Origin: Myxococcota bacterium
Lineage (GTDB): Bacteria; Myxococcota_A; UBA796; GCA-2862545
DNA length: 32,000 nucleotides
Assembly (NCBI GenBank): GCA_965216925.1
Contig: CBDCGT010000001.1
Span: 86,047-118,046 of the forward strand
Direction of reading: 5' to 3'
The position numbers were made by a program, and so were the translations under genes. A model generated the notes under the pieces. The model was given only the letters and a program-made list of their open reading frames with translations, was not told the origin of the DNA and made no database searches. Below, one piece after another: positions 173-24,168 of this stretch. How positions within the stretch are numbered: the first letter of the stretch is position 1; every line of letters begins with the position of its first letter.

Positions 173-630
173 GGAGCTGGTCCAGAGGCAGATTCGAGCC
201 CTTCGTGGTTGCGCGTTGAATGTTGGGTGCAGACGCACTTGTGCGCCGCCGCCGAGGCGGATATCTTGATCATGGTGTTTGCCTGGCCGCGGGGATGCGT
301 TGAGGGTGTCCCTGCGGCCGACCCACCAAGAGGCTCGACCGCAGCCGCAGCATCAATATCGTATACGGTTGCTTCAGTCATCGCCAGGGCAGAGGGCGAG
401 CGGGCGGCCTGATTGGCTATTTAATGGGGATTCGCGAGCCGACGATGCCGCGTCGTCTCGTGGTTGCGTTTGCGCCATTTGGTAACCGTCAACCCAAATT
501 AACAAATAACTTGATGGTGACCAATTGCGCGTCATTCGTTCAACGTCCAGCGCTAGATCCCCAGGGAATGGCAACGATGGAGCATCGCCCTCCATCCTGC
601 CGGCCGATGACATCCCGTGACAACCACATC

Positions 631-648
631 ATCTATCAGATGATAGAT
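631..648. promoter_or_regulatory. Perfect 8-bp inverted repeat ATCTATCA-GA-TGATAGAT, a candidate operator overlapping -10-like hexamers (TAGATA/GATAAT/TAATAT, 644-653) just upstream of the HTH gene ATG at 656
   Basis: Read directly from the sequence. It lies in the only AT-rich stretch (about 480-655) of a 480-nt intergenic region. No SD fits between the -10-like hexamers and the ATG, so the transcript may be leaderless. Confidence 0.4.
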
Positions 649-655
649 AATATGC

Positions 656-946
656 ATGGCCATCACACCAGACCGCATCAAAGAACTTCGAGACGCCGCC
701 GGCCTTCGTCAGGAAGACCTTGCCTTTCTGCTGGGGGTCGGCATCGCCAGCATCCCCCGGTGGGAAAGGTCAGGGGGCACGCTCCCCGGCGGCATGACCC
801 GGCAGCTGCTCGAGGTCATCGGTGAGCTGCACGACGCCGGCTTCGACCTCTCGGTCGTGGGACCGGCGCTTCGGCACTCCGGCAACATGGGGGCGCTGCG
901 CCTGCTGTTGAACGCGTACCACGACCTGAAGAAGGGGGCGTCATGA
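656..946 (+). CDS. XRE/Cro-type helix-turn-helix transcriptional regulator (96 aa)
   Basis: N-terminal ITPDRIKELRDAAGLRQEDLAFLLGVGIASIPRWERS fits the XRE HTH pattern (helix, turn, recognition helix, W-E-R). The stop overlaps the next start (ATGA at 943-946). Confidence 0.8.
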   Translation: MAITPDRIKELRDAAGLRQEDLAFLLGVGIASIPRWERSGGTLPGGMTRQLLEVIGELHDAGFDLSVVGPALRHSGNMGALRLLLNAYHDLKKGAS

Positions 947-3900
947 AGCTGACGGGCCGCCATGGCGAGTACAAGGTCATCCGCCAGCTCAACGAGGGCT
1001 CCTTCGCCCGGGTGATGCTGGCCAGGGACGCGAACAAGCGACCAGTCGCCCTGAAGGTGCTGATGGACGTCAACGACAACGACGCCGTCGAGCGCTTCGC
1101 GCGCGAACAGCGCATCCTCTCGGGCTTCCATCATCCGAACGTCGTGCCGTTGGTCGACGACGGCGTCGACGAGAAGGGGCACCCCTGGTACGCCATGCCG
1201 GCCTACGAGACCGACCTCGTGTCGGTGATCGGCGACGAGCCGGGTGCCGGGCGGGTGGCCGAGCTCGTCGGGGACATCGCCCGAGCGCTGGCTGCCTACC
1301 ACGACCGTGGTGGTATTCACCGTGATCTGAAGCCCGACAACGTGCTCATGGACGGCGACACGCCCCGTCTGGCCGACTTCGGTGTTGCGCGATGCCCTTC
1401 CCTCGACGGCGAGAGCCTGACGCGAACGGCACTCGGCACGGTCGAGTACATGGCGCCAGAGGTGTGGCGAGGTGAGGCCTCGCCAAAGTCCGATATTTTC
1501 GCGCTCGGCATCGTCCTGTGGGAGCTGGCGAACGGGACGCGTCGGAAATTCTCCGACCCCGGGCCGCCGCCGGAGTCGCTCGACGCAGGGCCGCAGTTCG
1601 CGGTCATGAACCCGCTTTACCAGCAGATGACGGCGAAGGATGCGTCCTCGCGCCCCACAGCGGCAGAGGTCGTGACAGCATGCGACGAGATCATCCGTCG
1701 CTCGGTGAAGGCGGGGATGTCGTTCACCGAGGCCCAGATCGAGGCGATCCAGCACTCTGGTTCGCACCTGCAGCTCATCGCGTGCGCGGGGTCGGGCAAG
1801 ACCGAGGTCGTTGCTCGGCGGGTGGCGACCCTCCTGGACCCGGCTCGGGAGCCGAGGTTGAGCCCAGCGAACATCGTGGCCTTCACGTTCACCGAGAAGG
1901 CGGCCGGCGAGCTCAAGCAGCGCATCGTGGAGCGCACGCGAGACGCCCACGGCGAGGTGGTCGGCATGGCCGAGATGTTCGTCGGCACCATCCATGCGTT
2001 CTGCCTCGAGCTGCTGACCACGGAGGTCCCCGAGTACATGAAGTACGAGGTGTTCAACGCGGTGCAGCAGAGTCTCTTCATCGACCGGAACAGCAGGAAG
2101 AGTGGCCTCACTGCCACCGTCGATCTCAATGGGAAGCCGCTGCGCCGGTACCTGGACACGCCGCACTACAGCAGCGCGTTGCAGATCCTCCGGGAGGATG
2201 ATGTCGACGATGCGCTGGTGAGCTCGAGTTTGAAGAGCGGCCTTGCCGCCTACCAGGCGCTCCTCGCGCAGCATCACTACCTCGACTACTCGGCCATCAT
2301 GGACCGAGCCGTGATCGAGCTCGAGACCAACGACGACTTCCGCAAGCGGATCGGCGAGCGCATCAAGCACGTCATCGTCGACGAGTACCAGGACGTGAAC
2401 CCCATTCAAGAGCGCCTGGTTCGCGCCATGGCCGATGCGGGTGCGCACGTGTGCGTGGTTGGCGACGACGACCAGACCATCTACCAGTGGCGCGGAAGCG
2501 ATGTCTCGAACATCCTCACCTTCAAGGACCGCTACGCGAACGTGCACCAGGTGCGGCTACAGGAGAACTTCCGTAGTAGTGAAGGGGTCATCGATCTCGC
2601 TCGGGAGTTCATCAAGCAGAACCAGCACCGCCTGGACAAGGCGATGGTGCCGACGAACGCCCAGCCCTACGAAAAGGGCGACATCGTGGCCCTGGGCCAC
2701 GACACGCCCGAGGAAGAAGCTCGGTACATCGCCGAGACCATCAAGGAACTCGTAGGAGTCGCGTTCACCGATGCGGACGGCACGCGGCGAGGGCTGTCGT
2801 GGTCCGACATGGCCATCCTCTTCCGCTCCGTCGCCAAGAACGCGGCGCCGGTCATCGCGGCGCTCGACGAGGCCGGGATTCCCTATGTCGTCGAAGGGAT
2901 GAACAATCTCTTCCACACGCACGAAGCCGAAGCCGCGCGTCAGCTCTTCTACTTCATGGACGGGAGAATGGGTGCCAACGAACTGGCCGCGTACTGGCGC
3001 ATTCCCCGGTTCGGCTTCGACAGCGATGCGGTGCACACAGCTGTCGCGAACGCTTCGAAGGCGCGCAGTCGGCTGCTGAACAACGCGGGACAGGAGCATT
3101 GGTCGCTCTACAATCTTCAGCGGCAATTCATGTCCTTCCTCGAAGACCTCGGGCTCAAAGAGGAGAACATTTCCGACGGTGAGGTCGTGCTCTACAACCT
3201 CGGCAAGTTCAGCCAGCTGATCTCGGACTTCGAGGCCATTCACTTCCACTCCGACCCGCAGCGCAAGTACGAGGAGTTCGCCAAGTTCCTCGAGTACGGC
3301 GCCGAGGGCGCGTACCCCGAGGGCTGGCAGGACAGCCAGTATGCCAACGTCGACGCCGTGCGGATCATGACCGTCCACAAGGGCAAGGGCATGCAGTGGC
3401 CAGTCGTGTTCGTGCCCGCGCTGCTGAGGAACCGGTTCCCCTCGAAGCGGCAGGGCGGTCGCAGTGTGTGGCACCTCCTGGACGAGAACGCTGTCGACGA
3501 CCACATGCGGTACCGCGGGAGCGTCGAGGACGAGCGCCGGCTGTTCTACGTTGCGGTGACCCGGAGCCAGAAGTTCCTCTTCCTGACCCATGCGCCCATC
3601 GCGAACAACCGCCTGTACAAGCGCCCGTCCGACTTCTTCGAAGACGTTCTGGTCTCGAAGTACGTCAAGCGCCGCCGGCAGACCTACGATGACCGCGACC
3701 GCCTCGAGCCGCAGGCAAAGAAGTCGGTGGCCAACGTCACCCTATCGTTCAGCGACGTGAAGTACTTCTTCGAGTGTCCGTATCAGTTCAAGCTGCGCAT
3801 TCTGTACGGGTTCAACGCCCCGATTCACGAGGCGCTCGGATACGGCAAGTCACTGCACGATGCCCTGGCCGAGGTGCATGCCCGCGCGATTCGCGGTGAC

Positions 3901-4467
3901 CTTGCCGGTGAAGCCGAGGTCGAGGAGCTGGTGAGGCGACACCTTCACGTCCCGTATGCCTACCCAGCCCTGCGCGAGACTCTCGAGGCCAGTGCTCGCA
4001 AGGTCGTGTCGAACTACCTCGCCGACAACGCCGAGCTCCTCCAGAACATCGAGTTCAGCGAGAAGACCATCTCGATCGACCTCGGCGACGGCATCACCGT
4101 CTCGGGACGCATCGACCTGGTTCGGCGTCTCGATACCGACGAGACCACCATCGTCGACCTGAAGAGCAAGGACCGCGTGCAAGTCGACGAGGTGACCGAG
4201 ACCCAGCTCCACATCTATGCCCTGGGCTACCGCGAGCTCACCGGCCACGACGCCGACTTCGTCGAGATCTACAACCTCGAGGAGCGCCAGAAGAAGCCGC
4301 GCTCGGTCGACGAGGACTTCATCGAAGACGTGCGGAGCGACGTGCGCGACGCGGCGAACTCGCTGCGTCAGAACGACTTCCCGGTGAAGACGAGCCACAA
4401 GGCGTGCTCGACCTGCGACTACCTGGGCATGTGCAGCGCGGGGCAGAGAAAGGTGGAGGGCCCGTGA
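943..4467 (+). CDS. Fusion protein (1174 aa): Hanks-type Ser/Thr protein kinase + UvrD/PcrA-family SF1 helicase + C-terminal Cas4/AddB-like PD-(D/E)xK nuclease with a four-Cys (Fe-S type) arrangement
   Basis: Kinase motifs: EGSFARV loop, VALK (K38), HRDLKPDN (nt 1318-1341), DFG (nt 1375-1383), MAPE. Helicase motifs: ACAGSGKT, FTFTEKAAGELKQR, GTIHAFC, VIVDEYQDVNP, VVGDDDQTIYQWRGS, QENFRSS, TVHKGKGMQWPVVFV, RRLFYVAVTRSQKFL. Nuclease motifs: YFFECPYQFKL, GRIDLV...IVDLKSK, QLHIYALGY, CSTCDYLGMC. Confidence 0.9.
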   Translation: MKLTGRHGEYKVIRQLNEGSFARVMLARDANKRPVALKVLMDVNDNDAVERFAREQRILSGFHHPNVVPLVDDGVDEKGHPWYAMPAYETDLVSVIGDEPGAGRVAELVGDIARALAAYHDRGGIHRDLKPDNVLMDGDTPRLADFGVARCPSLDGESLTRTALGTVEYMAPEVWRGEASPKSDIFALGIVLWELANGTRRKFSDPGPPPESLDAGPQFAVMNPLYQQMTAKDASSRPTAAEVVTACDEIIRRSVKAGMSFTEAQIEAIQHSGSHLQLIACAGSGKTEVVARRVATLLDPAREPRLSPANIVAFTFTEKAAGELKQRIVERTRDAHGEVVGMAEMFVGTIHAFCLELLTTEVPEYMKYEVFNAVQQSLFIDRNSRKSGLTATVDLNGKPLRRYLDTPHYSSALQILREDDVDDALVSSSLKSGLAAYQALLAQHHYLDYSAIMDRAVIELETNDDFRKRIGERIKHVIVDEYQDVNPIQERLVRAMADAGAHVCVVGDDDQTIYQWRGSDVSNILTFKDRYANVHQVRLQENFRSSEGVIDLAREFIKQNQHRLDKAMVPTNAQPYEKGDIVALGHDTPEEEARYIAETIKELVGVAFTDADGTRRGLSWSDMAILFRSVAKNAAPVIAALDEAGIPYVVEGMNNLFHTHEAEAARQLFYFMDGRMGANELAAYWRIPRFGFDSDAVHTAVANASKARSRLLNNAGQEHWSLYNLQRQFMSFLEDLGLKEENISDGEVVLYNLGKFSQLISDFEAIHFHSDPQRKYEEFAKFLEYGAEGAYPEGWQDSQYANVDAVRIMTVHKGKGMQWPVVFVPALLRNRFPSKRQGGRSVWHLLDENAVDDHMRYRGSVEDERRLFYVAVTRSQKFLFLTHAPIANNRLYKRPSDFFEDVLVSKYVKRRRQTYDDRDRLEPQAKKSVANVTLSFSDVKYFFECPYQFKLRILYGFNAPIHEALGYGKSLHDALAEVHARAIRGDLAGEAEVEELVRRHLHVPYAYPALRETLEASARKVVSNYLADNAELLQNIEFSEKTISIDLGDGITVSGRIDLVRRLDTDETTIVDLKSKDRVQVDEVTETQLHIYALGYRELTGHDADFVEIYNLEERQKKPRSVDEDFIEDVRSDVRDAANSLRQNDFPVKTSHKACSTCDYLGMCSAGQRKVEGP

Positions 4468-5453
4468 AGTCAGAGGAGTTCGAGGCACTGGTGCTCGAGG
4501 GCGAGAAGGAGACAGTGGACTTCAAGGCCTTCTACGACTGGGCCCACGGCGGAAAGAGCGAGGTCGCGGAGTTCTCGAAGGATGTCATGGCGATCGCGAA
4601 CCTGCTGCCGCCGGGTACGACGCCGGGCCACATCCTCCTGGGCGTCGAGGAGTTCAAGGACTCGGGTGCAAGTGGGGGCCGGATTACCGGCCTCTCTCCG
4701 CAACTGCGCACGTCGGACTCCGCATCGATGACGCAGCGACTACAGCGGCATCTCAACAGCGTCCCGAGGATCGAGTACGAAGAGCTGCAGGTCCCGCGCC
4801 ACGATGACGAGTCCGTTCTCGTCTGGGTGGGAGTGCTGACGATTCGTCCGGGTGGCCGCCCCTACTACGCCAAGCGCGAGTACCCGAACAAGCTGATCGG
4901 CGGTGTGGCCTACCGCCGGGCTGGCACGTCGACGCAGATCGCCACGCCGCGCGATATCGAGCTGTGGCTGGTAGAGGACCAGCGGCTCGACCCAGCAAAA
5001 CTCGACCTCGAGAAGCGGAAGCTCGAAGCGGAGATCGCCGGGCTGCGAGGCGCCATCACCCCGGTCCCATTCGCCAAGTTCCAGGACGCCGGTGGGCGGG
5101 GGCAAGCGGCGAAGGTGAGCTGCTCCATTCGGTTCGAGAATCACGGGATGTGCCCATACCGGGCGCAGGTGCTCGACTTGGCGGTCGGCCGGCAGAGTGT
5201 CGACGGCGTGACCTGGACACAGGTACTGCACGCATCTCTGGATTTCGGCCTGCATCCGAACACCGCTCGCATGGAGACGTTCGAAGTCGACGCGAAGGAG
5301 TTTTCGCAGGCGTCTTCGGCCCAGGGCGCCAACGCGGCGGTCAAGGACTACGCGGCCCTCGCCGAGACGCTTTGGATCCAGATCACGCTCACCTGCGTTT
5401 CCCACGCTGGCATCCGCATCCAGCGGCAGTTCCTGCGCGCCCCCGTTCGGTGA
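4464..5453 (+). CDS. AlbA_2 / Schlafen-like (divergent AAA-4 'putative DNA-binding') domain protein with an unknown C-terminal half (329 aa)
   Basis: The pattern EGEKETVDFK ... FSKDVMAIANLL ... GHILLGVEE ... ITGL ... VLTIRPGGRPYYAK ... VAYRRAGTSTQIATPRDIELW matches the AlbA_2 layout (E-x-E-F-K, AfaN, GG-liiGV, yiR-gs-t). I place the start at GTG 4464, overlapping the upstream TGA (GTGA), rather than at the track start 4404. Confidence 0.7.
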   Translation: MKSEEFEALVLEGEKETVDFKAFYDWAHGGKSEVAEFSKDVMAIANLLPPGTTPGHILLGVEEFKDSGASGGRITGLSPQLRTSDSASMTQRLQRHLNSVPRIEYEELQVPRHDDESVLVWVGVLTIRPGGRPYYAKREYPNKLIGGVAYRRAGTSTQIATPRDIELWLVEDQRLDPAKLDLEKRKLEAEIAGLRGAITPVPFAKFQDAGGRGQAAKVSCSIRFENHGMCPYRAQVLDLAVGRQSVDGVTWTQVLHASLDFGLHPNTARMETFEVDAKEFSQASSAQGANAAVKDYAALAETLWIQITLTCVSHAGIRIQRQFLRAPVR

Positions 5454-5468: not shown

Positions 5469-8186
5469 CTAAAACAACTCCCACAGCCGCAACAGCACCT
5501 CGGCATCCAACGCCGCGTACGCCTCCTGCCTCGGCGTCAGCGGGCGCCGCGTCCAGTCGCTCGTCTGCTGCGCCTTGTCGAGCTCGATGCCGAGCTCGCG
5601 CAGGCAAACCGCCTTCAGGCTGTGACCGCCCTTCGCCCTCTTTCTCATCACCCGTGAGCGCTCGAGGGTGTCGACGACGTTCTCGATCTCGATGCCGTAC
5701 TTCCGCAGCACCGACCGCTCGAAGTTGGCGTTGTGGATGACCTTCACGATGGTGTCGTCGGCCATCAGCTCGCCCAGGGGTGCCAGGTCGGACAGCTCGA
5801 GGGCGTCCATGAGGAACACGCGGTCCTTCGTCGCGACCTGCACGAGGCACAGCGCCCGGCTGGCAAGCGTGGTCTCGACGTCGAGGCCGAGCACCTCGGA
5901 CTCCGACAGCATCGCGCACGCTTCTCGGAGACCCTCCTCATCGCGAACCCAGTGCACAGGCAACGAGCCGCGCACCTTCGGCTCCGACAGGTCGACGTGT
6001 TCGACGCGCTCGGGCACCTCGCTCTCGTCGGCTCGACGCTCCCGCAGCGATGCGGGCACCCGCACGAGCTCGCCGGCCTCGCCGCCTGCGAGCCATGCCC
6101 AGGCGCCCGCGACGTCGAGCAGGTACTCGCCGAGCATCTCGCGCTCGACCCAGGGCGGCATCAGCGGCTGGAACTTGCTCAAACGGTAGTTTGGAAGCGA
6201 CTGGCCGACCTCGTCCCAGAGTGCGTCGTTCTCCCAGAACTCGACCTCGGACAACGCCGCCACGGCCTCTTGGAATCGGCGCTCATCGAGGTCGTCGCTG
6301 CGCACCTTCACGAGGTAGTTGTCGGGGATGACCTTCCAGTCGCTGCCCACGGCCTCGAGGGCGTAGCGCAGGGTCGAGTTGATGCGACCGCCGGCGAAGG
6401 TCCACCAGCGAATCTCGCCGGGCTCGACCTCGATGCCGCCACGCACGGGCTCGAGCATTCCGTCGAAGCCCTCGCGCTGCTGTCGGAGCACCTCGACGGC
6501 CGTCTCGTGCAGGTAGGGGTAGGCCTCGTCCGAGGTCAGCACCTCGAGCACCTTCTGACAGACGTCGAAGCCCAGGAACTGCGGCAGGTAGCCGCCCCAT
6601 GTCGGCTGCCGACCCCGCGGGGCAGGCTGAACGACGATGCGCCGGTCGTCGTGGAAGATGCGGTCGACCGCCCACGCCCGACCGCCCAGCAGGAAACAGC
6701 TCACTCCGTCGACGAGACGGTCGACGAAGCCCTGCTGCAGTGTGCCGATGGGCTGCCCGGCACCCGTCTGCACCGAGTAGCTCTGCGGGCTCGAGAAGAC
6801 GGCGAACAGCTCCATGAAGTTGCGTCGGCCGAAGCGCTTCTCGGCACGAGGGCCGAGCACGAGGCGGCCGCTCATCTGCAGCAGTGCCCGGTCTCGCAAC
6901 ATCCAGGCCACCAGGCGCTCGAACTCGGCCCGGTGGATGCGTCGGAAGTCGGGTACCTGGCTCAGGTGTGCCCAGGCCTCTTCGAGGGGAATCCCGTCGG
7001 CCGCGAGTGCCATCGCGAGCAGCTGGTGAACCAGCACCGGCCAGCACCGGTCGGTGACCTCGACCGACTCGACCCATCCCGCCTTGGCGAGCTCGACGAG
7101 CGCGATGGACTGGGTCACCGCCTCGGTCGTCTCGCAGAAGAAGGTCGTGTTCGCTGCCTGACCAGCTCGGCGGCCCGTGCGGCCCATCCGCTGCAGGAAC
7201 GAGCTCACGGTGTCCGGGGCCTCGGCCTGCAGCACGCGGTCCAGGTCGCCGACGTCGATGCCGAGCTCGAGGGTGCTCGTGGCCACGATGCACGCATCGG
7301 AGCCGTGGTGGAAGCGCTCCTCGGCGAGCGCTCGCTCTTCCTTCGACACCGCGCTGTGATGCACGAACACCGTCGTTCCCGACCGGCGCATGTGCTCGGC
7401 AACTGCCTCGGTCGCCGCACGGGACTGGCAGAAGAACAGGCTCTTCTTGCCACGAGCCATCACGGCAGCGTCGTGGGCGAGCAGGCCGAGCTCCGCGCGG
7501 TGCACGACGAGCAGCTGCTTGCGACCTGGCTTCTTGGGAGGGTCGACGACGCGGCCTGGTCGCTCCGAGGTGCCCTGGAGCCAGGTGAGGATGGCATCGG
7601 GGTTGCCGACGGTCGCGCTGAGGCCCACGCGCTGCACGTCGTGCCGCGACAGCTTGGCCAGGCGCTCGAGCACGCTCATCAGGTGCGCGCCTCGGTCCGA
7701 ACCCGCCAGTGCATGGATCTCGTCGATGACCACGATGCGCAGGTCGGCGAACAGCTTCGCCGCGTCGACACGCTTCGAGACGAGCATCACCTCGAGGGAC
7801 TCGGGTGTGGTCATCAGCAGCTCGCTCGGCTGCTTCAAGAACTTCGTCCGGGCGCTCGACGAGGTGTCGCCGTGCCAGACGAATCGGTCCAGGCCGACCA
7901 TCTCTGTGTAGAGGCCCAGACGGTCAGCCTGGTTGTTGAGCAGGGCCTTGATCGGAGCGATGTAGAGGGCCGCGAGTCCTCGAGGCGGGTCGTCGACCAG
8001 GTTCGACAACGTCGGGAACATCGACGCTTCGGTCTTGCCCCCGGCCGTCGGGGCCAGGACGACGGCATTGCACCCGTCGAGCAGCGCTGCCCCAGCCAGT
8101 TCCTGCACCTCGCGCAGGCTCGACCATCCCAGCCGAGCGACGATGGCCTCCTGGAGGCGTGGGTTGAAGCGGGCGAAGACGCTCAC
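5469..8186 (-). CDS. brxHI: BREX BrxHI: Lhr-like DExH helicase with a C-terminal DEDDy 3'-5' exonuclease (RNase D/WRN-exo-like) domain (905 aa)
   Basis: Helicase motifs: VLAPTAGGKTEA, VVIDEIHALAGSDRGAHL, GLSATVGNP, ATSTLELGIDVGDLD, LQRMGRTGRR, followed by a long Lhr-type C-terminal region. Exonuclease motifs in roughly the last 165 aa (nt about 5469-5965): LGLDVETT (ExoI), HNANFERSVL (ExoII), YAALDAEVL (ExoIII Y-x3-D). The start is set at GTG 8186 (AGGA 6 nt upstream), overlapping the upstream TGA. The track start at 8306 adds a non-coding-looking extension. Confidence 0.85.
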   Translation of the reverse strand: MSVFARFNPRLQEAIVARLGWSSLREVQELAGAALLDGCNAVVLAPTAGGKTEASMFPTLSNLVDDPPRGLAALYIAPIKALLNNQADRLGLYTEMVGLDRFVWHGDTSSSARTKFLKQPSELLMTTPESLEVMLVSKRVDAAKLFADLRIVVIDEIHALAGSDRGAHLMSVLERLAKLSRHDVQRVGLSATVGNPDAILTWLQGTSERPGRVVDPPKKPGRKQLLVVHRAELGLLAHDAAVMARGKKSLFFCQSRAATEAVAEHMRRSGTTVFVHHSAVSKEERALAEERFHHGSDACIVATSTLELGIDVGDLDRVLQAEAPDTVSSFLQRMGRTGRRAGQAANTTFFCETTEAVTQSIALVELAKAGWVESVEVTDRCWPVLVHQLLAMALAADGIPLEEAWAHLSQVPDFRRIHRAEFERLVAWMLRDRALLQMSGRLVLGPRAEKRFGRRNFMELFAVFSSPQSYSVQTGAGQPIGTLQQGFVDRLVDGVSCFLLGGRAWAVDRIFHDDRRIVVQPAPRGRQPTWGGYLPQFLGFDVCQKVLEVLTSDEAYPYLHETAVEVLRQQREGFDGMLEPVRGGIEVEPGEIRWWTFAGGRINSTLRYALEAVGSDWKVIPDNYLVKVRSDDLDERRFQEAVAALSEVEFWENDALWDEVGQSLPNYRLSKFQPLMPPWVEREMLGEYLLDVAGAWAWLAGGEAGELVRVPASLRERRADESEVPERVEHVDLSEPKVRGSLPVHWVRDEEGLREACAMLSESEVLGLDVETTLASRALCLVQVATKDRVFLMDALELSDLAPLGELMADDTIVKVIHNANFERSVLRKYGIEIENVVDTLERSRVMRKRAKGGHSLKAVCLRELGIELDKAQQTSDWTRRPLTPRQEAYAALDAEVLLRLWELF

Positions 8187-8614
8187 GGTTCCTGCTCTCG
8201 AAAATGCCCGCTGGCGCCACCCCGAGAAGCACTCATCCCGTGTACACGGAAGCTCTCGGCCGCGAGCGGCACATTCGGGAAGTGGTAGCAGCGCTTCTCT
8301 TCCCACGACTCGGACTCGGTGACCTCACCGAAGACGTCCTGGAGCTCGCCGAGGGTCATCGCGATGGCCCACGGAGCCACGCCCTTCGGCCGGATGTACT
8401 GCACGAGGATTCCGTCTGGTGGCAGCATCTCCCAGGCGTCTCGCTTCATGTGCACGCGGGTGCTGGAGTAGGCGACCAGCACGGTGTCGCCGATGTGATG
8501 CCGCTGGGGCCGTGTTCCCGGGTCGCCACGCTCGAGCAGGGCTCGAACAGCCGGGTGCGCCACCACGCTTCCGCGCGATGCCGGCCGTGTCCAGCGGCGC
8601 CGAGGGCCCCCCAC
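8183..8614 (-). CDS. Hypothetical protein (up to 143 aa) wedged between brxD and brxHI
   Basis: Strong G/C third-position bias through the body (…HIGDTVLVAYSSTRVHMKRDAWEMLPPDGILVQYIRPKGVAPWAIAMTLGELQDVFGEV…). GTG 8614 lies 3 nt after the brxD stop, and the TGA overlaps the brxHI GTG. No family recognised, and the exact start is uncertain. Confidence 0.6.
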   Translation of the reverse strand: MGGPRRRWTRPASRGSVVAHPAVRALLERGDPGTRPQRHHIGDTVLVAYSSTRVHMKRDAWEMLPPDGILVQYIRPKGVAPWAIAMTLGELQDVFGEVTESESWEEKRCYHFPNVPLAAESFRVHGMSASRGGASGHFREQEP

Positions 8615-8617: not shown

Positions 8618-12797
<4,180 letters not shown>

Positions 12798-12801
<4 letters not shown>

Positions 12802-13430
12802 GGGTCCTTCCGCGCGATGGAATCGGTCAGCCTGTAGAAGCTTGTTGTTGGATTCCGGCCGGACTCGTCCATCTCGTCGGCGTCTTCATCGAGTGCGCGG
12901 GCGCGTCTGGTGGCATCGCCGACCCCCGCCGCGACCGTCGTGAAGGTGAGACCCTTGTCGTAGCTCGGAATGAACGAGGCCAGCATCGCCTGGACATCGT
13001 GGCGGTGTCTGGCCCCAGGGCTGTCCCGGAAGTGTAGGAGGAGCCAGAGCTCTATGCATGGGTTCGAGACGGCCAATTTGAAGGCGTTGGCTCTGGCCAT
13101 CGTGCAGGCGTCATGGAAGCGCTCGTGCTCATCCCGGTCGAACACGCACCATACTTCGTCGAACTTCAGGTAGTCGTCGCCGTGTTGCTTCGCCTGCCGA
13201 GCGGCGTCCTCTGCCAGCGCCTTGGCGATTTCCACCACCTTCTTGGGGTCGCCCTGTTCATTGGGGATGGCGACCTCCACGGACGCGTTGCGGACATGCC
13301 GTTGATAGCCCTTGATGTACTCGGGCTCCGTCCGCTTGCCCTCACAGACTACCAGTAGCCTCCGTCGAGGATCCCGGGTTGCAGCACGCCTTGCCGAACG
13401 ACGGGCTCGGTTTCTCCGGTTGCTCCCCAT
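12798..13430 (-). CDS. RloB-like (AbiLii-type, Toprim-like) protein (210 aa)
   Basis: Hallmark RloB motifs: LLVVCEGKRTEPEYIKGY, VWCVFDRDEH, KLAVSNPCIELWLLLHF. The start is set at ATG 13430, 4 nt after the ATPase stop. The track start at 13568 overlaps the ATPase gene. Confidence 0.85.
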
Positions 13431-13434
13431 TCCG

Positions 13435-14712
13435 CTACTCCGGCACGCGTGTGAGGTCGCCCAGGAAGGGAATGGCACCGTAGCGCCCCTGTAGGTAGCC
13501 GCGCTCCAGGTTTTCCGCCTTTCTCGGCTTGTAATCCGTGAGTGGATAGGCGCAGGTTGCCCCCTCATTGCTCTTCTCGGTCAGCCAGACCTGATCACGA
13601 CGCAATGCGGTCTCACCGGTGGTCGTCCCCAGAAGATTGGTGTCGTGCGTGGTGAAGAGCAGCTGGGCATTTCGCGGGTTGGTGGCCGGATCGTTGAACT
13701 GCTGCAGCACCCTGAGAGCGAGGAGAGGGTGGAGGCTCGCCTCCAGCTCATCGACAACGAGTAGGCCTCCCCGGTGTAGAACGTCGAGGAGCTCTGGGCC
13801 CAGTTGAAAAAGGGTCAGGGTGCCTTGGGACTCCTCTTCGAGGGGCAGCCAGGCTTCCTCCGAGGCGCTTTGGTGACGGACGAGGATTCCCTCGCGCCGC
13901 CACGGTGGTCGGTCGCTAGACTCCTCGTCCGCGGACTCGAGTTTGAAGTCCAAGATACCGACATCCGCTGCCTGGAGAAGGTCGCGGAACGAGTCTAGGC
14001 GACCGTCCTCCTCCCGCTCAAACAGAGTCGTCTGTGTGCGACCGTTGGCTCTCTGGGCAAGGGCGCGGCGGAACCAGTTGCGCCGGAAGAGCCCCAGACC
14101 TCGATGCCTGTTTCGGCGACCACCGACTGCACCTACGCTCCGGAACCACCAGTAGATGGGTGCGAGCTGCTGGTGCTTGTGCTGCACGGCCGCCGCGAGG
14201 AACAGGGCATTGGGTCGCGTGACCTGCTCGACCAGACGGTTCTCGCCATGAAGGTGATCACCGAACTTGAAGTCGTCCCCTTCGCGCTCGAACCAGGTTT
14301 GCTTCCGCCCCCGCGGCCAGGCGTACAGCCACTCCTCGAGGAACCGCTCATCGTCCGCGACGAAGCCGTACCGGTAGCGCACCTCATCGACGAGGATGGT
14401 GACCTCGAACAACGATGGCTCCTGCGTCTTGGTGCCCCAGGCGAACGGCTCTCTGGGGACGCCTCCCTCCGGAGCCCATGCGCGATGAGACATCATTACC
14501 GCGTTGCCCATGAAGCTCATCGCTGCCAGAAGATTGCTCTTGCCGCTCGCATTCGCTCCGTAGACTGCTGCAGCGGGAAGAAGAGGAGTTTCGTGCCCCG
14601 GGACCTTGCGCGGTCGCTGGTCGCTCGCATCCCCGCCACGCCCTGCTTCCATGGTCACCACCTGCTCATCTCGGATTGAGCGGTGGTTCTCGACGCGAAA
14701 CTCGATGAGCAT
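13435..14712 (-). CDS. RloA/AbiLi-like ABC-type (AAA_21-like) ATPase (425 aa)
   Basis: MLIEFRVENHRSIRDEQ..., Walker A YGANASGKSNLL, Walker B/D-loop LLVVDELEASLHP, H-loop LFTTHDTNLL. The start is ATG 14712, with GGAGG 6 nt upstream. Confidence 0.85.
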   Translation of the reverse strand: MLIEFRVENHRSIRDEQVVTMEAGRGGDASDQRPRKVPGHETPLLPAAAVYGANASGKSNLLAAMSFMGNAVMMSHRAWAPEGGVPREPFAWGTKTQEPSLFEVTILVDEVRYRYGFVADDERFLEEWLYAWPRGRKQTWFEREGDDFKFGDHLHGENRLVEQVTRPNALFLAAAVQHKHQQLAPIYWWFRSVGAVGGRRNRHRGLGLFRRNWFRRALAQRANGRTQTTLFEREEDGRLDSFRDLLQAADVGILDFKLESADEESSDRPPWRREGILVRHQSASEEAWLPLEEESQGTLTLFQLGPELLDVLHRGGLLVVDELEASLHPLLALRVLQQFNDPATNPRNAQLLFTTHDTNLLGTTTGETALRRDQVWLTEKSNEGATCAYPLTDYKPRKAENLERGYLQGRYGAIPFLGDLTRVPE

Positions 14713-14814
14713 CGTGGACCTCCGCCCGCATCCTATGCGTGTCACGTCGTGATTTCTGCAATGAATTTGCGGATTCGGAGAGGTAAGCGGGCCGTCCGCG
14801 GGTTTAGGGTGGCG

Positions 14815-19037
<4,223 letters not shown>

Positions 19038-19041
<4 letters not shown>

Positions 19042-20537
19042 TGGGGGGCTCCGACTGCCGTGCGTAGCAGTGACTCGGTCTGCTCGACGAGGTGCGGGTG
19101 ATTCCAGTTCTCTGGGCCGAGGACGACCAAGACGGCGGTGTCGTCGAGTCGCGGGGTCGGCCCGTCGACACCCCACGCGGCGGTTGCGCGTGCCCACCGC
19201 TCGTCGCGAAGACCGGTTGGTCCCTCGATGTTGAAACGTAGCGCGGCGAGGTCTTCATCGACGCGTGCTCGCAGGCGAGCGCTGTGTGGAAGTACACCGG
19301 TGCGCGTCAACCATCCCCCCTCGGTCCACTGGAAACGACGCCTGCCCGCCTCGTCCCGCCCGACGAGTCGAAGCAGGATCTCGGAGACGGAACGATAGAG
19401 CGCACGTGAGACCGGGCTCCACGCCCGAATTCCGCGTCTAAGCTCAGGAATATGCAACCGGGGCGCGTGTGGGGACGACGCGGCACCGCGCGTATTCCAG
19501 GCGCGGTCTGGCGTCAGTCGGTGCAGCTGGCGAAGCGCTGATCGGCCGTGTGCGAGCGCGGCGGCGAAGTCGGCCTTCCGTAGCGTGCGGTTGCCGTCAG
19601 AGGTCAGAATGTCGAGTATGTACCAGCGCTTTTCTCCGGCCGCTCGACGCCAAGGCGTCGTCTCATTCCTCAGCGCCCGTGCCAGGGCCTTGTTGGCATA
19701 GATTTCGAGCTTCCATCGGACCCTCTGCGCGGCGCTGCCGGCATCGATCGAGAGGCACAACCCCTGGATCGCGGTCCCTGGGAGGGAGCTGTTGAACCAC
19801 AGTCCAGGTCCCCACCCTTCGCTGGGATCGCATCGGAGCTTCTTCCGCTGCAGTGACCGCTCGAGCTTCGTTCGGATGGCGTTGTTTGGCCCCAACGCCA
19901 CCAGAACCGCCTCTAGCTTCTCCTTGAGTCGGGGAAAGCGCTTCATGAGCTGGTCTGCCCTGTTCCAGGCATCCGCTTCGAGGGCGAGGCGGGCGTCGCC
20001 TACTTGAGCTCGCAGCATGAGATCCCGCAGGTCTCGCCGCGAGGCTCTCTGTGCCTTGGAGCCTGCGGCAAGGCCCTCCAGCACGTCGTCCCAGGTCAGG
20101 ACCGGCGACGAAGTCGGGCATCGACCTGCCCGGCGCCTTTCTACGAGCGAGACGACGAGCGCCCCCGGGAACGCCGTTCGGTAGCTGTCGAGCTGCTCTT
20201 CTGACGGCTCGTCGTCACCGACCTTGGCTTCGAGAACCAACAGTGCTGATTGCGCCACTCCGAGGAGACATAGGACGACGTCTGCCCGAACAGCACGGTC
20301 CTCCTCGGCGAGCCACACGGTCACCTGTGTCTGAACCTCGACGCGTCCATTCCAACTGCGTGGCGCCGACCAGCTCCCCAGGCGTCCGTGTTGACCCAGA
20401 ACGCGGTCCACCAGGAACCGGGTCAGTCGCCTATCGCGCTCCAGCTGACGGCCGAGGCACAGGCTGACGAAATCCTCCCTCGGAACCCGCTTGGTCGCCC
20501 GTGTGAGCTGATACAGCTGATCGAGGAAGCCCTCCAC
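19038..20537 (-). CDS. Hypothetical protein (499 aa) with an N-terminal PD-(D/E)xK (RecB-like) nuclease-type motif set, inserted between brxC and pglX
   Basis: N-terminal roughly 170 aa contain RADVVLCLLG...LLVLEAKVGDDEPSEEQLDSY, i.e. D...E-x-K followed by Q-x3-Y as in RecB-family nucleases. The remaining roughly 330 aa are not recognisable. The start is set at GTG 20537, 1 nt after the brxC TAG, and the stop overlaps the pglX ATG. Codons ending in A/T (CGA, GGA, TCA, CTA, GTA) are visibly more frequent than in flanking BREX genes. Confidence 0.6.
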
Positions 20538-20538
20538 G

Positions 20539-23500
20539 CTACACCAGCCGAATACGCACGCCGGCAGCAAGCTGCTTGGTGAGCCGTTCACGAATTTCAG
20601 TCAGGAGCGCTTCGACCTCTTCATCGGTCTCCAGCTCGCGGTTACGTAGCTTCAAGTTGACCTTGCGAATGATCGGTGTGGGCCCTGTGCTCAGCAGCTC
20701 ATCGAGCCGATCGTTGGCTTCGTCCTCTGCTCTGCGGAGAGCTACGACGAAGGGATCCTTCAGCGCTGCAAGGCTGGGCGCGACGGCGTCGGTCGTCGTC
20801 ACCGTCATGGCCTCGGTGATCGGCCTCAGCACGTGGTGCGATTGGTCGCCGGTGAGCGTGCTGAAGCCGTTTCGCACCTTGACTCGGCTACGAGCTTCAT
20901 CGGCCTCGTCTCCCTGCCACGTGAGGCGTCGCTGCCGCTCGGCCGTGTACGCATCGCGAATGGCCTTCAGGTCGGCCTCCAGGGATGAGACGTCCCGCCA
21001 TGGGCGCTTGCCGTCGAGGTGTGCGGTGACCCGATCACCGGCTTCCCCGACCTCGGAGCTGAGAGCGCCGCTGTCCCGTAGCTGGGCGAGCTGGTGGTCC
21101 CTGACGCGGCCAGCCGTCACGACATCCTGGATAGCCTGTGATGTGAGCTCGGCATCGTAGATGTTCAGCAGCTGGATGCCGTCTCGAAGCTCATCCAGGC
21201 GCCGCTTGACGAGCTGCACGGTCGGCTTGGTCTGTCGGCTGGAAGCTACGCACCGCTCGAGAACGTCCTGGAGCTTTGCCAGGGCCTCGGGGACTCCGCC
21301 ATGGCCTGGTAGCTGGTCGATGCGCTCGAGCACGCTGCGCAGGCGGCGTGCCTGCCCTGGGAAGAGCTGTGACACGGCGTCGGCGATGGCGTGGTCTTCG
21401 CGGTCCATCTGGTGGTCGAGCTGCTTGGCGAAGAAGCTGCAGATCTTCGCGCGAGCCTGGAACCCGATGTCGTCCTCGCCCGAGGGAAAGAACGAGGCCC
21501 GCCGGAAGCCGCGGTCCTTGTCGAACAGGTCGCGAACGCCGGCGTCTCGGATGGCGGTGATCTCGGCCCCGCCGTCAGGCTGCACCCGGAGCTTGCCGGC
21601 ACGCAGAAGTCCGGCGACACACGCCTTCACGACGTTGGCGGTGTAGCCATACGGTGGGCCGCCGAAGTGCGCGAGCAGCGTCGTGCCACCCAGGCCACCC
21701 TCGGCCTCGATGTACTCCTGTACCCGCCGAGGAACGACGCCAGCGCAGGTAGGCACGTGTCGGCCGGCATCGAGCTCGAGGATGCCGAGCTCGCCAGACA
21801 AGAACTTCGGCGACGGCCCCGACAGCTCGCTCTCGACGAGCTGCATGAGCTCGCTCGGCGCGATGTTCGTGGCCACGATGTGCGGGAACAGGTCGGGCAG
21901 GGTTCGTGTGGCTGCTTGGCTCAGGGCGGCGGGGAAGGTGGGGCCATGCTCCTTCGGATCGATGGCACGACCGCGGAAGTACATGCGGCCGGCCAGCCAG
22001 GCGTGTGCGACCGCTTCACGCACCCGTGGCTCGAGGTCTTCGACCCGGTTCTCTTCTTGCTGCAGCAGCAGTTTGCGAGCGGCGTTCAGGGACTCGCGCC
22101 GCGGTTTGTACTTGTCGACCATCTTTCGGGAACGGGCGAGATCCCGAGCCTTCTCGTCGATCTGGTCGGTGTCGCCGCAGACCCATACCAGGCGGTTCTC
22201 GAGAGCGGTCTCGGCGCTCCGCTTCACCCAGGTGCTCTCGGTGCGCTCGTCCTTGGCCACGAACCGGAAGTCCACGCGCATTGCGGCGTCATCGCGCGGG
22301 TCGACGACGATGGCATCGTCGAGTCGCCGCCCATCCGAGAGAACGCCGGCCCAGGGGAAGGGACGGCCGCCCATTCGGGGACGGTCTGGGCGTGCGAGCA
22401 GGTACTTCAGCGCGTCCATGACAATGTCGCTGATGACTTCTCGGGGAACGCCGAGGTCGCGTCGGTCTCGCTCCCATTCCTCGCCGGCCGAGGACTGAAT
22501 CTTGTAGCCGTGCTTCTCGGAGTACCCCAGCAGGTTGCGTCGCTTGAGCTCCTCGAGCGCCTCGGTCACCGCCGGCACGTTGTTGCCGAGGTCGACGCGG
22601 TCGTACAGGCATTGGGCCACGAGCTTCGCGTCGGTCGCGATGGTGTCCTGGATGAGCTCGAGAAGGGCCACGGCCTTGGCCGCGCGAACCAGGAGTCCGG
22701 AGTCGTCGTTGGCGCACTGATTGAGGATGCGGGCCATGCTGGCCTGCACATCGGAGTCGAGCGCGGTGTGCTGCACCTCGTAGATCTGGTCGAGGGTGAC
22801 CAGCGTGCCGACCGGCATCTCGGCCAGCTTCTGATCGCGGAACAGCTCGCCGAGCAGCTGCAGCAGCCCTCGGATGGCCTGGTCGTCGCCCTGGGCCCGA
22901 CTCGAGCGGGTGCGAAGGGCGCTCGTGATCTGCAGCAGCAGGTCGATGTGCCCCGGCAGCATCGGGTAGACCTCGACGAACTCCTCGGGCGTGACCGCTT
23001 CACAGCCGTAGGCGTACAGCTTCAGGCTCGGCCGATTCGCGTCGAACATCGACCGAAGATCAGCCTCGGCAGACGACTTCTTCTGCAGCAGGCGCTTGTG
23101 CACGACGTCGCGGATGTTGGTCGCGTGGAGGTGCACGCGCAACTTCGGGGGGAAGCGGTCTTTGGCCCACACGAGAAAGCTGTTGCCGGCCTGCTGGTCG
23201 ATCATCTGCTGGCCGAGTGCGAGCAGCCACACCGCGCCCTTCTGCCGAGCGCCGAGCGCCGAGGTGAAGGCACGCAGGCGGTCGACCCGGTCGGAGTGAC
23301 CGAGCACGTACTGGGAGACCTCGTCGATGACCAGGAAGAGCGTCGAGCCGGGGCGGCGGAAGCCGACCATGTCTCCGATCGCGCGAACGGCCTCTTCGGG
23401 AGACTCCGCACGAGCATGGGTGCCCGCCCGCGCGATGAACCAGCTCATCGGGTCGGTGTAGCGCTCCGGGTACATGGCGTTCATCACCTGGGAGAAGGCT

Positions 23501-24168
23501 TCCTCGGCCAGTGCGCTGTCCTTCACCGCCGACCACGGCTCGCCCAGGGCCTCTGCGGCGACCTTCTCGAAGCGAGCCCACTCGCCGTCGCGCTCGAGCG
23601 CGAGCTCGAAGTCGGCCACCAGGGGCTCCGTGGTGCAGTACCCCAACCGGGTCTGCACCTGCCGGACCGCGGCGGCGTGGATCTGCTCGTTGTCTCGGGC
23701 GATGCCGCCGATGTCGAACACGACCGCGATGGGGTCGATCTTCTGACGCAGCGTGGCCCAGGCACTTCGAAGCTCGTCGGCCCTGGGTGACGTGTCCCGC
23801 GCGAGCCACGCCTCGGCCAACGACCGTCCGTCGGGCAAAGCCACGCCGTCGAGGGAGAGTCCGAGGAGCTTCGCGAAGCTCGACTTACCGGATCCGTAGA
23901 AGCCAGAGATCCAAGCCGTCGGCAGCTCGGGCCCGCCCTTCTTGTCGAGCTCCTCGGAGATGCTGCGCAACAGTCGCGTGTACTGCTCGTGAATTCCGTT
24001 CGGAACCCGCTTGTGGTTCGGGTGTTCGGCAGGCCAGCCGCCGGTGATGATGTACTCGGACACCTCATCCGCGAGCTTCTCGGGGCTCTGCTCGTGGAAG
24101 TACACGACCGGGGGGATGTCGCGGGTGACGTCAGAGACGAACAGTTCTCGAATCAGCATGGTGCTCAC
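20539..24168 (-). CDS. brxC: BREX P-loop ATPase BrxC/PglY (1209 aa)
   Basis: N-terminus MLIRELFVSDVTRDIPPVVYFHEQSPEKLADEVSEYIITGG and Walker A GFYGSGKSSFAKLLG (nt about 23866-23904) are typical of BrxC. The GTG start at 24168 overlaps the brxB TGA. Confidence 0.9.
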   Translation of the reverse strand: MSTMLIRELFVSDVTRDIPPVVYFHEQSPEKLADEVSEYIITGGWPAEHPNHKRVPNGIHEQYTRLLRSISEELDKKGGPELPTAWISGFYGSGKSSFAKLLGLSLDGVALPDGRSLAEAWLARDTSPRADELRSAWATLRQKIDPIAVVFDIGGIARDNEQIHAAAVRQVQTRLGYCTTEPLVADFELALERDGEWARFEKVAAEALGEPWSAVKDSALAEEAFSQVMNAMYPERYTDPMSWFIARAGTHARAESPEEAVRAIGDMVGFRRPGSTLFLVIDEVSQYVLGHSDRVDRLRAFTSALGARQKGAVWLLALGQQMIDQQAGNSFLVWAKDRFPPKLRVHLHATNIRDVVHKRLLQKKSSAEADLRSMFDANRPSLKLYAYGCEAVTPEEFVEVYPMLPGHIDLLLQITSALRTRSSRAQGDDQAIRGLLQLLGELFRDQKLAEMPVGTLVTLDQIYEVQHTALDSDVQASMARILNQCANDDSGLLVRAAKAVALLELIQDTIATDAKLVAQCLYDRVDLGNNVPAVTEALEELKRRNLLGYSEKHGYKIQSSAGEEWERDRRDLGVPREVISDIVMDALKYLLARPDRPRMGGRPFPWAGVLSDGRRLDDAIVVDPRDDAAMRVDFRFVAKDERTESTWVKRSAETALENRLVWVCGDTDQIDEKARDLARSRKMVDKYKPRRESLNAARKLLLQQEENRVEDLEPRVREAVAHAWLAGRMYFRGRAIDPKEHGPTFPAALSQAATRTLPDLFPHIVATNIAPSELMQLVESELSGPSPKFLSGELGILELDAGRHVPTCAGVVPRRVQEYIEAEGGLGGTTLLAHFGGPPYGYTANVVKACVAGLLRAGKLRVQPDGGAEITAIRDAGVRDLFDKDRGFRRASFFPSGEDDIGFQARAKICSFFAKQLDHQMDREDHAIADAVSQLFPGQARRLRSVLERIDQLPGHGGVPEALAKLQDVLERCVASSRQTKPTVQLVKRRLDELRDGIQLLNIYDAELTSQAIQDVVTAGRVRDHQLAQLRDSGALSSEVGEAGDRVTAHLDGKRPWRDVSSLEADLKAIRDAYTAERQRRLTWQGDEADEARSRVKVRNGFSTLTGDQSHHVLRPITEAMTVTTTDAVAPSLAALKDPFVVALRRAEDEANDRLDELLSTGPTPIIRKVNLKLRNRELETDEEVEALLTEIRERLTKQLAAGVRIRLV

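Follow-up and report, generated by a model that had tools for sequence, protein, structure and literature searches.

Proteins that join a UvrD-like helicase to a Cas4-like nuclease form a monophyletic fusion family, which was named UvrD-Cas4 by Hudaiberdiev et al. (2017, BMC Evol Biol, PMC5704561). The same study found their genes beside type III Mod/Res and Dcm/Vsr genes, occasionally with helix-turn-helix (HTH) or WYL regulators or Schlafen-like neighbours, and suggested that the family plays an ancillary part in several defence systems of the restriction–modification (R-M) type. Here we analyse a 32,000-nucleotide stretch of a Myxococcota genome (GenBank assembly GCA_965216925.1, contig CBDCGT010000001.1, positions 86,047 to 118,046), called the window below, in which a UvrD-Cas4 protein is fused to an N-terminal Ser/Thr kinase domain. 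The gene for this fusion is the second of three in a plus-strand cassette; it lies between a small HTH gene and a gene for a Schlafen/AlbA_2 protein, and the cassette faces the 3′ end of a type 6 bacteriophage exclusion (BREX) cluster (Table 1).

How BREX stops phage DNA is still debated. In the model proposed in a 2026 survey (PMC12839542), PglZ makes nicks that auxiliary effectors exploit, so that auxiliary nucleases finish the work. The survey documents auxiliary and back-up nucleases around BREX, among them PD-(D/E)xK enzymes, PARIS-like pairs and, in at least 1017 taxa, Schlafen RNases; its text and the supplements examined contain no mention of UvrD or Cas4, and the latter none of RecB. 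The survey also describes PglW, a protein of 1400–1600 aa with a NERD nuclease, a pseudokinase, a kinase, three winged HTH (wHTH) domains and an inactive STAND domain. MkoA of Mokosh type I combines a Ser/Thr kinase with a superfamily 1 (SF1) helicase and has a nuclease, MkoB, as its partner (Millman et al. 2022).

Our preferred reading, to which we assign a probability of roughly 60%, is that three defence modules with separate origins have been stacked in the cassette, with one fusion, under the control of the HTH protein and at the 3′ flank of the type 6 BREX. The mosaic part of this picture is well supported: the three modules (the HTH gene with the kinase, the helicase–nuclease and the AlbA_2 gene) are distributed independently, their catalytic residues are kept and one candidate operator lies ahead of them. 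Both the helicase–nuclease (UvrD-Cas4, 2017) and the AlbA_2 gene (bacterial Schlafen) are of kinds already known. What is new is the kinase–UvrD-Cas4 fusion, found in one genome, a UvrD-Cas4 clade that lies repeatedly against brxHI, and an HTH–kinase pair with a conserved palindrome. The locus defines no new class of system, and the trio should not be catalogued as a system.

The helicase–nuclease and its family

A search of 5.8 billion proteins returned 6813 homologues. The best 120 of these, the query excepted, are about 892–953 aa long and share 62–81% identity with the query over residues 256–1174; one of the 120 has 1306 aa and carries an added superfamily 2 (SF2) helicase. UvrD and PDDEXK_1/Cas4 domains are present in these 120 proteins, and none of them besides the query has a Pkinase domain. 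Scanning one genome per species (GTDB representatives, 185,579 species) gave 386 relatives, the best 80 of which all match from about residue 250 on, with one reaching back to residue 193. Neither search yielded a second copy of the kinase–UvrD-Cas4 fusion, and in the 5.8-billion-protein collection the fusion sequence has a single member, from a single contig of 6.87 Mb. There is no fusion homologue among relatives of about 55% identity or more, because the extra domain would have lifted its score above those of the proteins listed.

All helicase motifs checked are intact (Walker A with K286, DEYQD, R874, and motifs III, V and VI) and are conserved in an alignment of 120 sequences, namely the window protein and 119 homologues. 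The nuclease residues D1058, D1072/K1074 and Q1088/Y1092 and the four cysteines C945, C1155, C1158 and C1164 are likewise in place. Each of the key helicase and nuclease catalytic residues and each cysteine is kept in at least 119 of the 120 aligned sequences. The best PDB matches of the helicase core are PcrA and UvrD (E-values of about 1e-43 to 1e-45). A sequence search of the PDB with the nuclease domain alone gave no match at E ≤ 1; in PADLOC its best matches are Cas4 models.

By sequence comparison, residues 256–1174 are a member of the UvrD-Cas4 family. All four of its defining features are present: a UvrD-like SF1 helicase, a pfam12705 nuclease with four cysteines, a close full-length relationship and a neighbourhood of the R-M type. 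The relationship was judged by identity (more than 100 proteins of about 920 aa, 62–81% over 919 aa) and by clustering. Compared with the family as published (PMC5704561), the window protein has the same architecture, keeps all motifs and has a methylation-based defence system alongside. It differs in that it alone among the members seen has an N-terminal Ser/Thr kinase domain and in that its neighbour is a tail-to-tail type 6 BREX, a context absent from that paper. At 62–64% identity the family has members in Planctomycetota, Burkholderiales, Binatia, Acidobacteriota and Dehalococcoidia, among others, and such identity across very different phyla points to horizontal spread.

The commonest place of the UvrD-Cas4 gene is at the head of a type III operon: in about 40 of 82 loci, co-directional type III mod and res genes lie directly downstream of it, usually within tens of bases. 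The mod product is an N6_N4_Mtase protein of 840–1020 aa and the res product a ResIII + RE_endonuc protein of 930–1110 aa. Other UvrD-Cas4 genes precede genes for type ISP enzymes, type IIG Eco57I/MmeI-like enzymes, type I HsdM, DruA and NurA, or sacsin/NOV_C proteins. Two distant plasmid homologues adjoin Dcm methylases and type II endonucleases, and one of them is also near a Vsr gene. Our survey independently reproduces the contexts given in PMC5704561.

The original prediction, an annotation made by a model that read only the letters and the open reading frames (ORFs), had proposed an undescribed defence module and expected its homologues to lie outside housekeeping repair contexts and to keep their HTH and AlbA_2 partners. 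The first expectation was correct, since most inspected loci hold defence or R-M genes. The second failed: among the 84 loci examined that code for relatives of the helicase–nuclease, none gives a tblastn match to the HTH or the AlbA_2 protein of the window. Two weak kinase matches near other helicase–nuclease genes, 2.4 kb and 9.5 kb away, were judged unrelated on account of their distance and low identity.

Clustering by average linkage at 70% identity or more groups six sequences: the helicase–nuclease of the window, those of the loci L084, L001, L002 and L083, and one on contig P0003. Four of the six (window, L084, L001 and L083) stand tail-to-tail with brxHI; placement was judged for five, the P0003 contig being excepted. 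At L084, whose protein is 81% identical to the helicase–nuclease of the window, the convergent fragment matches the C-terminus of BrxHI at 92% identity. At L083 (75% identity) the stops of the helicase–nuclease gene and brxHI are 1 bp apart, and BrxD and PglZ follow. L001 (78% identity) encodes a 1903-aa sacsin-like protein, a weak sacsin match, between the helicase–nuclease and brxHI. L002 is a separate island with Mrr and GmrSD genes, not brxHI. The BrxHI orthologues of L001, L083 and L084 show 71–92% identity, and a more distant homologue of the helicase–nuclease (L057, 58%) is also followed by BrxHI, BrxD and PglZ.

The surroundings of the clade genes differ. Upstream there are the HTH gene and the kinase in the window, 86- and 525-aa proteins in L001, a Peptidase_S8 protein in L083, and an Exo_endo_phos protein with a methyltransferase on the P0003 contig. 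Between the helicase–nuclease and brxHI there is nothing, the AlbA_2 gene of the window or the sacsin-like gene of L001. Because the flanks vary across the clade, the conserved element is the helicase–nuclease beside brxHI and not the trio.

The survey of UvrD-Cas4 neighbourhoods also gave several observations on accessory genes. In L009 (12763–15945), and also in L007 and L028, the UvrD-Cas4 gene and mod are separated by a gene whose product of about 1060 aa has AAA_11/AAA_12 helicase, PLDc_2 and Zn-ribbon domains; we read this insert, a helicase and a phospholipase D (PLD) nuclease in one gene, as the Mokosh type II architecture. A C-terminal Peptidase_S24 domain is found in a type III Res subunit (L026, 15609–18935) and in a type ISP enzyme (L044, 12700–18126) downstream of UvrD-Cas4 genes. 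The Peptidase_S24 family includes LexA, and such a domain is unexpected in restriction enzymes. Large proteins of the sacsin type, some also with NOV_C, directly follow UvrD-Cas4 genes in L001 (4637–10348), L073 (12757–15900) and L079 (12706–15945). In one subclade a RadC (JAB-like) gene for about 240 aa precedes the UvrD-Cas4 gene (L104, 2314–3272; L105–L109, L003, L015 and L081), and in L104–L109 its stop overlaps the UvrD-Cas4 start. L104, L105 and L003 have a small HTH gene upstream that is unrelated to the HTH gene of the window, and the 5′ accessory genes of these operons vary.

The HTH–kinase module, the fusion junction and the Schlafen gene

The kinase domain carries the residues K38, E55, H126-R127-D128, N133, D145-F-G, A-P-E173 and R237, which the alignment shows to be invariant among the nearest kinases. 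It has the features of active Hanks-type Ser/Thr kinases and is predicted to be active, in agreement with the original prediction, which had called it apparently intact in catalysis on the basis of K38, D128, D145 and APE. The three nearest kinases (41–46% identity, 186–224 bits; the next best scores 129 bits) are stand-alone proteins of 295–304 aa that end in about 25 hydrophobic residues, resembling a membrane anchor. Directly 5′ of each of these three lies a small HTH gene, overlapping or abutting, and the three HTH proteins are 44–47% identical to that of the window over their full length. On these comparisons, HTH gene and kinase make up a distinct and rare module of two genes.

In the window, in L089 and in L085, the start of the HTH gene is preceded at 10–20 nt by a palindrome with the core TATCA-NN-TGATA; L088 keeps a shorter form, ATCA-NN-TGAT(A), and conservation does not extend into the flanking DNA. 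In the window, the palindrome and the −10 element of a promoter-like site overlap, which argues that the HTH protein represses its own operon. One other promoter-like site was found in the scanned stretch; it sits inside the fusion gene, at 3087–3114. The trio appear to be co-transcribed from one HTH-controlled promoter.

On a contig of 1340 bp (L089, SRR23274481), the HTH gene and the first 79 codons of the kinase occur as a copy of 94% identity; an unrelated gene lies upstream of it, and homology starts at window position 599–600. Relative to this copy, the ratio of non-synonymous to synonymous substitution rates (dN/dS) is 0.07 for the HTH gene and 0.06 for the 79 kinase codons. The occurrence of the copy in another setting, together with the low dN/dS, indicates that the HTH–kinase module is mobile and under purifying selection.

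The best PADLOC matches of the kinase are MAD6 (1e-49), PD-T4-6 (3e-46), MkoA and, weakly, PglW, and they concern the generic kinase core only. Matches of the MAD6/PD-T4-6/Stk2 type (1e-49 to 1e-46) cover about the first two-thirds of the models, and the NCBIfam MAD6 model gives 102 bits against a cut-off of 460. PD-T4-6, Stk2 and MAD6 thus share a Hanks kinase core with the window protein, the matches being limited to this generic catalytic core. To our knowledge, an HTH partner, a palindrome and a C-terminal hydrophobic tail are not part of the descriptions of these kinases. A HipBA-type pair was considered and rejected: the kinase is of the Hanks type and does not have the HipA fold, and the couple_hipB match is weak and far under its cut-off. 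The HTH protein and the palindromic operator-like site are common to both, and the analogy is in logic only.

At the fusion junction, kinase homology stops at about residue 249, the hydrophobic tail is missing and the helicase–nuclease starts six residues further on, within the junction peptide ...CDEIIRRSVKAGMSFTEAQIEAI... M256 aligns with the start codon of the UvrD-Cas4 family (homologues begin MKFT, the window protein MSFT at this point), and a purine-rich, Shine–Dalgarno (SD)-like sequence, GAAGGCGGGG, is retained just 5′ of it, inside the fused ORF. The fusion is therefore a deletion in which the next gene took the place of the tail; a single-base error could not make it.

The AlbA_2 protein scores 41.7 bits with SLFN_AlbA_2, above the cut-off of 25.3 (E = 2e-10). 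A word-indexed search with it found only itself, PADLOC and NCBIfam gave no match, and an exhaustive HMMER search recovered a family with 58 representatives at E ≤ 1e-10, mostly of about 300–335 aa. In an alignment of 32 members the catalytic motif E14-x4-D19-x-K21 is nearly invariant; the N-terminal Schlafen domain is conserved, the linker weakly so and the C-terminal half poorly, except for a short N-x-G motif. The alignment begins at 4464 and gives no support to an alternative GTG start at 4404. A single-sequence AlphaFold2 model, of low confidence (mean predicted local distance difference test score 39.9), suggests a helical linker and a beta-rich C-terminal domain. There is a weak profile match to the Schlafen protein CbCash (PDB 9ylu, E = 0.0096). 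Across twelve metagenome loci the family has no constant neighbour; one locus adjoins an integrase, ParB and an Mrr-like gene.

The bacterial Schlafen defences (pSlfn; Nat Microbiol 2026, PMC13056530) are fusions of a conserved tRNase domain to rapidly evolving sensor domains, for instance the Ig-like beta-sandwich of pSlfn5; the catalytic residues of RorSlfn5 are E15/D20, and about 70% of bacterial Schlafen proteins lie within 10 kb of a known defence gene. The AlbA_2 protein of the window shares with them the N-terminal Schlafen domain, the E-x4-(E/D)-x-K motif and a variable C-terminal domain. Its gene is part of a defence island next to BREX, a setting that the BREX survey reports for Schlafen proteins in at least 1017 taxa. 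The histidine-kinase-like ATPase and the wHTH of the commonest BREX-linked Schlafens are absent from the AlbA_2 protein. The gene probably belongs to the bacterial Schlafen defences.

Kinase genes also occur near Schlafen-type genes elsewhere. In L085 (594–3652 and 7161–8525) the nearest stand-alone HTH–kinase pair lies beside a divergent pair encoding a 593-aa protein and a 426-aa AlbA_2 protein, near an OLD-like ATPase/TOPRIM gene; these surroundings are another defence-island setting. The AlbA_2 protein of L085 is not similar in sequence to that of the window. In L095 (245–2890) a relative of the AlbA_2 family is found beside a divergent gene for an 881-aa membrane Ser/Thr kinase (Pkinase + DUF4013). 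With the window this makes three such cases, which may be coincidence.

Proposed function and alternative explanations

The biochemical steps that we infer for the stack of three modules run as follows. The helicase–nuclease would be an auxiliary DNA-degrading effector of the neighbouring methylation-based system: it would load at a nick, like UvrD, or at an end, like RecB/AddB, made in unmodified phage DNA, unwind the DNA and digest it with its Fe-S PD-(D/E)xK nuclease. The HTH repressor would bind TATCA-NN-TGATA over its own −10 element and keep the set repressed. The kinase, as is known for the defence kinases Stk2, PD-T4-6, PglW, MAD6 and MkoA, might phosphorylate host or phage proteins on infection. 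A deletion would have replaced its hydrophobic C-terminal tail with the helicase–nuclease, joined exactly at the start codon of the latter, and the SD-like sequence with the ATG at M256 may allow separate translation of the helicase–nuclease. We speculate that the tethered kinase switches the helicase–nuclease by phosphorylation in cis or rides it to phage DNA. The AlbA_2 protein would be a phage-triggered tRNase and provide a back-up layer of abortive infection.

In a more ambitious version, which we consider unlikely, the fusion would be a phosphorylation-gated DNA-degrading arm of the type 6 BREX: BREX would mark unmethylated phage DNA and nick it, the helicase–nuclease would enter there, and the tethered kinase would license the enzyme or spread an alarm. 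If true, the gated fusion would be a convergent counterpart of PglW built from unrelated parts, and the UvrD-Cas4 clade flanking brxHI would supply these BREX systems with a nuclease effector, which they otherwise appear to be missing. This clade is a concrete, testable candidate for an auxiliary effector, and the family to which it belongs is widespread and heads type III R-M operons. The one-off kinase fusion is a natural experiment on phosphorylation gating of a helicase–nuclease. The HTH–kinase pair, of which we found no description, is a small and rare candidate for a defence or toxin–antitoxin-like module.

The original prediction knew of no named system with this fusion or trio, and this holds in part: the fusion has domain-level matches only and no full-length match to any PADLOC, NCBIfam or Pfam model, but the helicase–nuclease was described in 2017 and the AlbA_2 gene fits a published class. 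Its statement that the parts were known only as separate proteins stands for the exact fusion, found here only, and has to be amended for MkoA, which joins a Ser/Thr kinase to an SF1 helicase. Mokosh type I and the window fusion have this joining and the involvement of a nuclease in common. The Mokosh helicase, however, is Upf1-like (COG1112) and its PLD nuclease is encoded by a second gene, whereas the window protein has a UvrD-like helicase with a fused Cas4-like PD-(D/E)xK nuclease. The PADLOC MkoA model matches only the kinase (residues 8–253), and an assignment to Mokosh type I was rejected, as Pfam places the helicase in the UvrD family, not in AAA_11/AAA_12, and finds no PLD domain. Gabija GajB was rejected as well: GajB models match the helicase core only, and there is no adjacent GajA-like gene, the nearest OLD/AbiL-like gene being about 8 kb off, inside the BREX cluster.

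The two explanations offered by the original prediction were an autonomous system and a PglW-like accessory of BREX. As a single autonomous sensor–effector system, the three genes would comprise a sensing kinase, an acting helicase–nuclease, an HTH antitoxin or repressor and an AlbA_2 co-effector, and the overlapping stops and starts at both junctions, the intact catalytic sites, the single promoter-like site with an operator-like palindrome ahead and the fact that no named system in PADLOC or NCBIfam covers the set would all suit it. We regard it as improbable, given that the combination occurs in one genome only, that the HTH and AlbA_2 genes accompany the helicase–nuclease in 0 of 84 loci and that each part belongs to a family of its own that occurs in other contexts. 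Recruitment of the fusion to the type 6 BREX as a functional analogue of PglW, working with BrxD, BrxHI and PglZ, is unlikely too, if somewhat less so. BrxD and BrxHI are shared by types 2 and 6, which Goldfarb and colleagues are said to have reported in 2015 as the BREX types carrying them, and both are found in the window cluster. Type 2 BREX does carry them according to PMC12839542, where PglW and some DndF proteins are also seen to pair a PD-(D/E)xK (NERD) nuclease with kinases; PglW and the fusion both have a kinase and a nuclease of this superfamily in one polypeptide beside a BREX with BrxD and BrxHI, and the closest helicase–nuclease clade lies repeatedly against brxHI. Yet PglW has no helicase, and the domain order and families differ. 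The fusion is not PglW itself, since it reaches 50.5 bits with BREX_PglW against a cut-off of 990 and Pfam finds no NERD, second kinase or STAND-type domain. The similarity is that of a generic kinase core (50–59 bits; the 59 bits of the PADLOC PglW model cover the core only), and the gene is convergent with BREX, outside its operon. The BREX-linked relatives have no kinase, so that BREX linkage needs none, and the kinase, together with its HTH partner, derives from an unrelated module.

The fusion could also be an artefact of sequencing or assembly, or it could stem from a recent deletion, neutral or slightly harmful, with the active product starting at M256. It is a singleton, and the SD-like sequence and the family ATG are kept inside the ORF. 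A one-base error, however, cannot remove a tail of about 40 codons and keep the frame, and the frame is open throughout the junction. Comparison with L089 shows strong purifying selection on the kinase N-terminus, and the catalytic residues of the kinase are all intact, which makes an accident of this sort quite unlikely in our view. Still far less probable is that the helicase–nuclease is a housekeeping recombination or repair enzyme, a single-chain analogue of AddAB/AdnAB, that came to lie beside BREX by chance. It resembles UvrD/PcrA, AddA, RecB and AdnB in sequence, shares with AddAB, AdnAB and RecBCD a UvrD-like motor and a RecB-type nuclease, and has a four-cysteine layout like those of AddB and Cas4. 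In contrast to these enzymes, it is a single chain of about 920 aa, horizontally mobile, found in defence contexts and outside the core repair set. Most contexts inspected hold defence or R-M genes and not repair genes, the identity between unrelated phyla points to horizontal transfer, and all NCBIfam repair equivalog scores are far under their cut-offs.

Several points weigh against the stack of three modules as we describe it. The overlapping stop and start codons of the three genes also fit a single functional unit, and the AlbA_2 gene near the HTH–kinase pair in L085 leaves room for a loose functional link between kinase and Schlafen protein. A common hotspot of integration, and not cooperation, could account for the tail-to-tail placement with brxHI, and the sample is small (five loci). 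The glycine loop of the kinase is degenerate (LNEGSFARV), with the middle glycine alone kept, and the L089 copy has the same form. That contig ends before the junction, and the fusion may exist in more than one strain. The literature search found no experimental test of any UvrD-Cas4 member, the effector role being drawn from context.

Layout of the window and the BREX cluster

The ORFs of the trio are strong profile matches and not chance ORFs, and all domains that the original prediction had named for the three proteins were found with Pfam (Table 1). It was also accurate on the layout: three overlapping plus-strand genes (ATGA at 943–946 and GTGA at 4464–4467) whose last stop codon (5451–5453) is 15 bp from the end of the convergent brxHI ORF, in a defence island where PADLOC recognizes the type 6 BREX from BrxE to BrxHI, as well as a full UvrD/PcrA motif set with a four-cysteine Cas4-like nuclease, which Pfam and the 120-sequence alignment confirm. 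The long minus-strand ORFs within the region have the look of the shadow ORFs typical of DNA with 65% G+C. The left flank (1–655) has no homology to any fetched locus except L089, from 599–600 on, and no tRNA gene was found in the 32,000 nt of the window.

Table 1. Features of the cassette and of the adjoining BREX cluster (window coordinates)
Feature	Position	Strand	Evidence
Promoter-like site, GTGACA / 16-nt spacer / GATGAT, upstream of the HTH gene	617..644	+	Consensus scan, pattern match only
Perfect 8-bp inverted repeat ATCTATCA-GA-TGATAGAT, candidate operator of the HTH protein	631..648		Sequence read
Xre-type HTH protein, 96 aa, likely autoregulator of the cassette	656..946	+	HTH_31 and HTH_3 above Pfam cut-offs
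Fusion of Ser/Thr kinase, UvrD-like helicase and Cas4-like Fe-S nuclease, 1174 aa	943..4467	+	ORF call, Pfam, alignment
Hanks-type kinase domain, residues 1–255	943..1707	+	Pkinase, residues 10–200, 7e-32
Fusion junction: linker RSVKAG, SD-like GAAGGCGGGG, ATG 1708–1710 (M256)	1690..1710	+	Sequence, family alignment
UvrD/PcrA-like SF1 helicase core, residues 256 to ~900	1708..3642	+	UvrD-helicase, residues 262–531, 3e-53; UvrD_C, residues 741–883, 7e-33
Cas4/AddB-like PD-(D/E)xK nuclease domain, four cysteines, residues 933–1164	3739..4434	+	PDDEXK_1, residues 933–1164, 2e-26; Cas_Cas4, 1.5e-7
Schlafen/AlbA_2 protein, 329 aa, GTG start at 4464	4464..5453	+	SLFN_AlbA_2, residues 14–158, 2e-10
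Spacer of 15 bp between convergent stop codons	5454..5468
BrxHI, Lhr-like helicase with C-terminal 3′-5′ exonuclease domain; last gene of the BREX cluster	5469..8306	-	PADLOC BrxHI, 1131 bits
Rest of type 6 BREX	8618..26150	-	PADLOC matches
BrxD	8618..9937	-	PADLOC
PglZ	9934..12801	-	PADLOC
AbiLii/AbiLi pair between pglZ and pglX	12798..14745	-	PADLOC
PglX	14815..19197	-	PADLOC
BrxC	20539..24168	-	PADLOC
BrxB	~24165..24773	-	PADLOC
Probable BrxA	24803..25579	-	Weak Pfam match only, 9e-4
BrxE	25576..~26150	-	PADLOC

A type 6 BREX occupies the minus strand between 5469 and about 26150; all of its proteins except BrxA have PADLOC matches. The AbiLi protein encoded between pglZ and pglX also matches AriA of PARIS (1e-34); at the same place L083 has other genes (DUF8245 and others), and PMC12839542 reports inserts of the PARIS type in BREX. 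On the minus strand, the interval between brxC and pglX is filled exactly by an ORF of about 500 aa (19038–20591) that matches nothing in Pfam, PADLOC or NCBIfam; this may be an uncharacterised gene embedded in BREX. Just past brxE, the G+C content falls to 58–62% between 26400 and 29100. Two overlapping minus-strand ORFs (26462–28009 and 27328–29088), neither with a Pfam or PADLOC match, occupy this stretch, which may be the far edge of the island.

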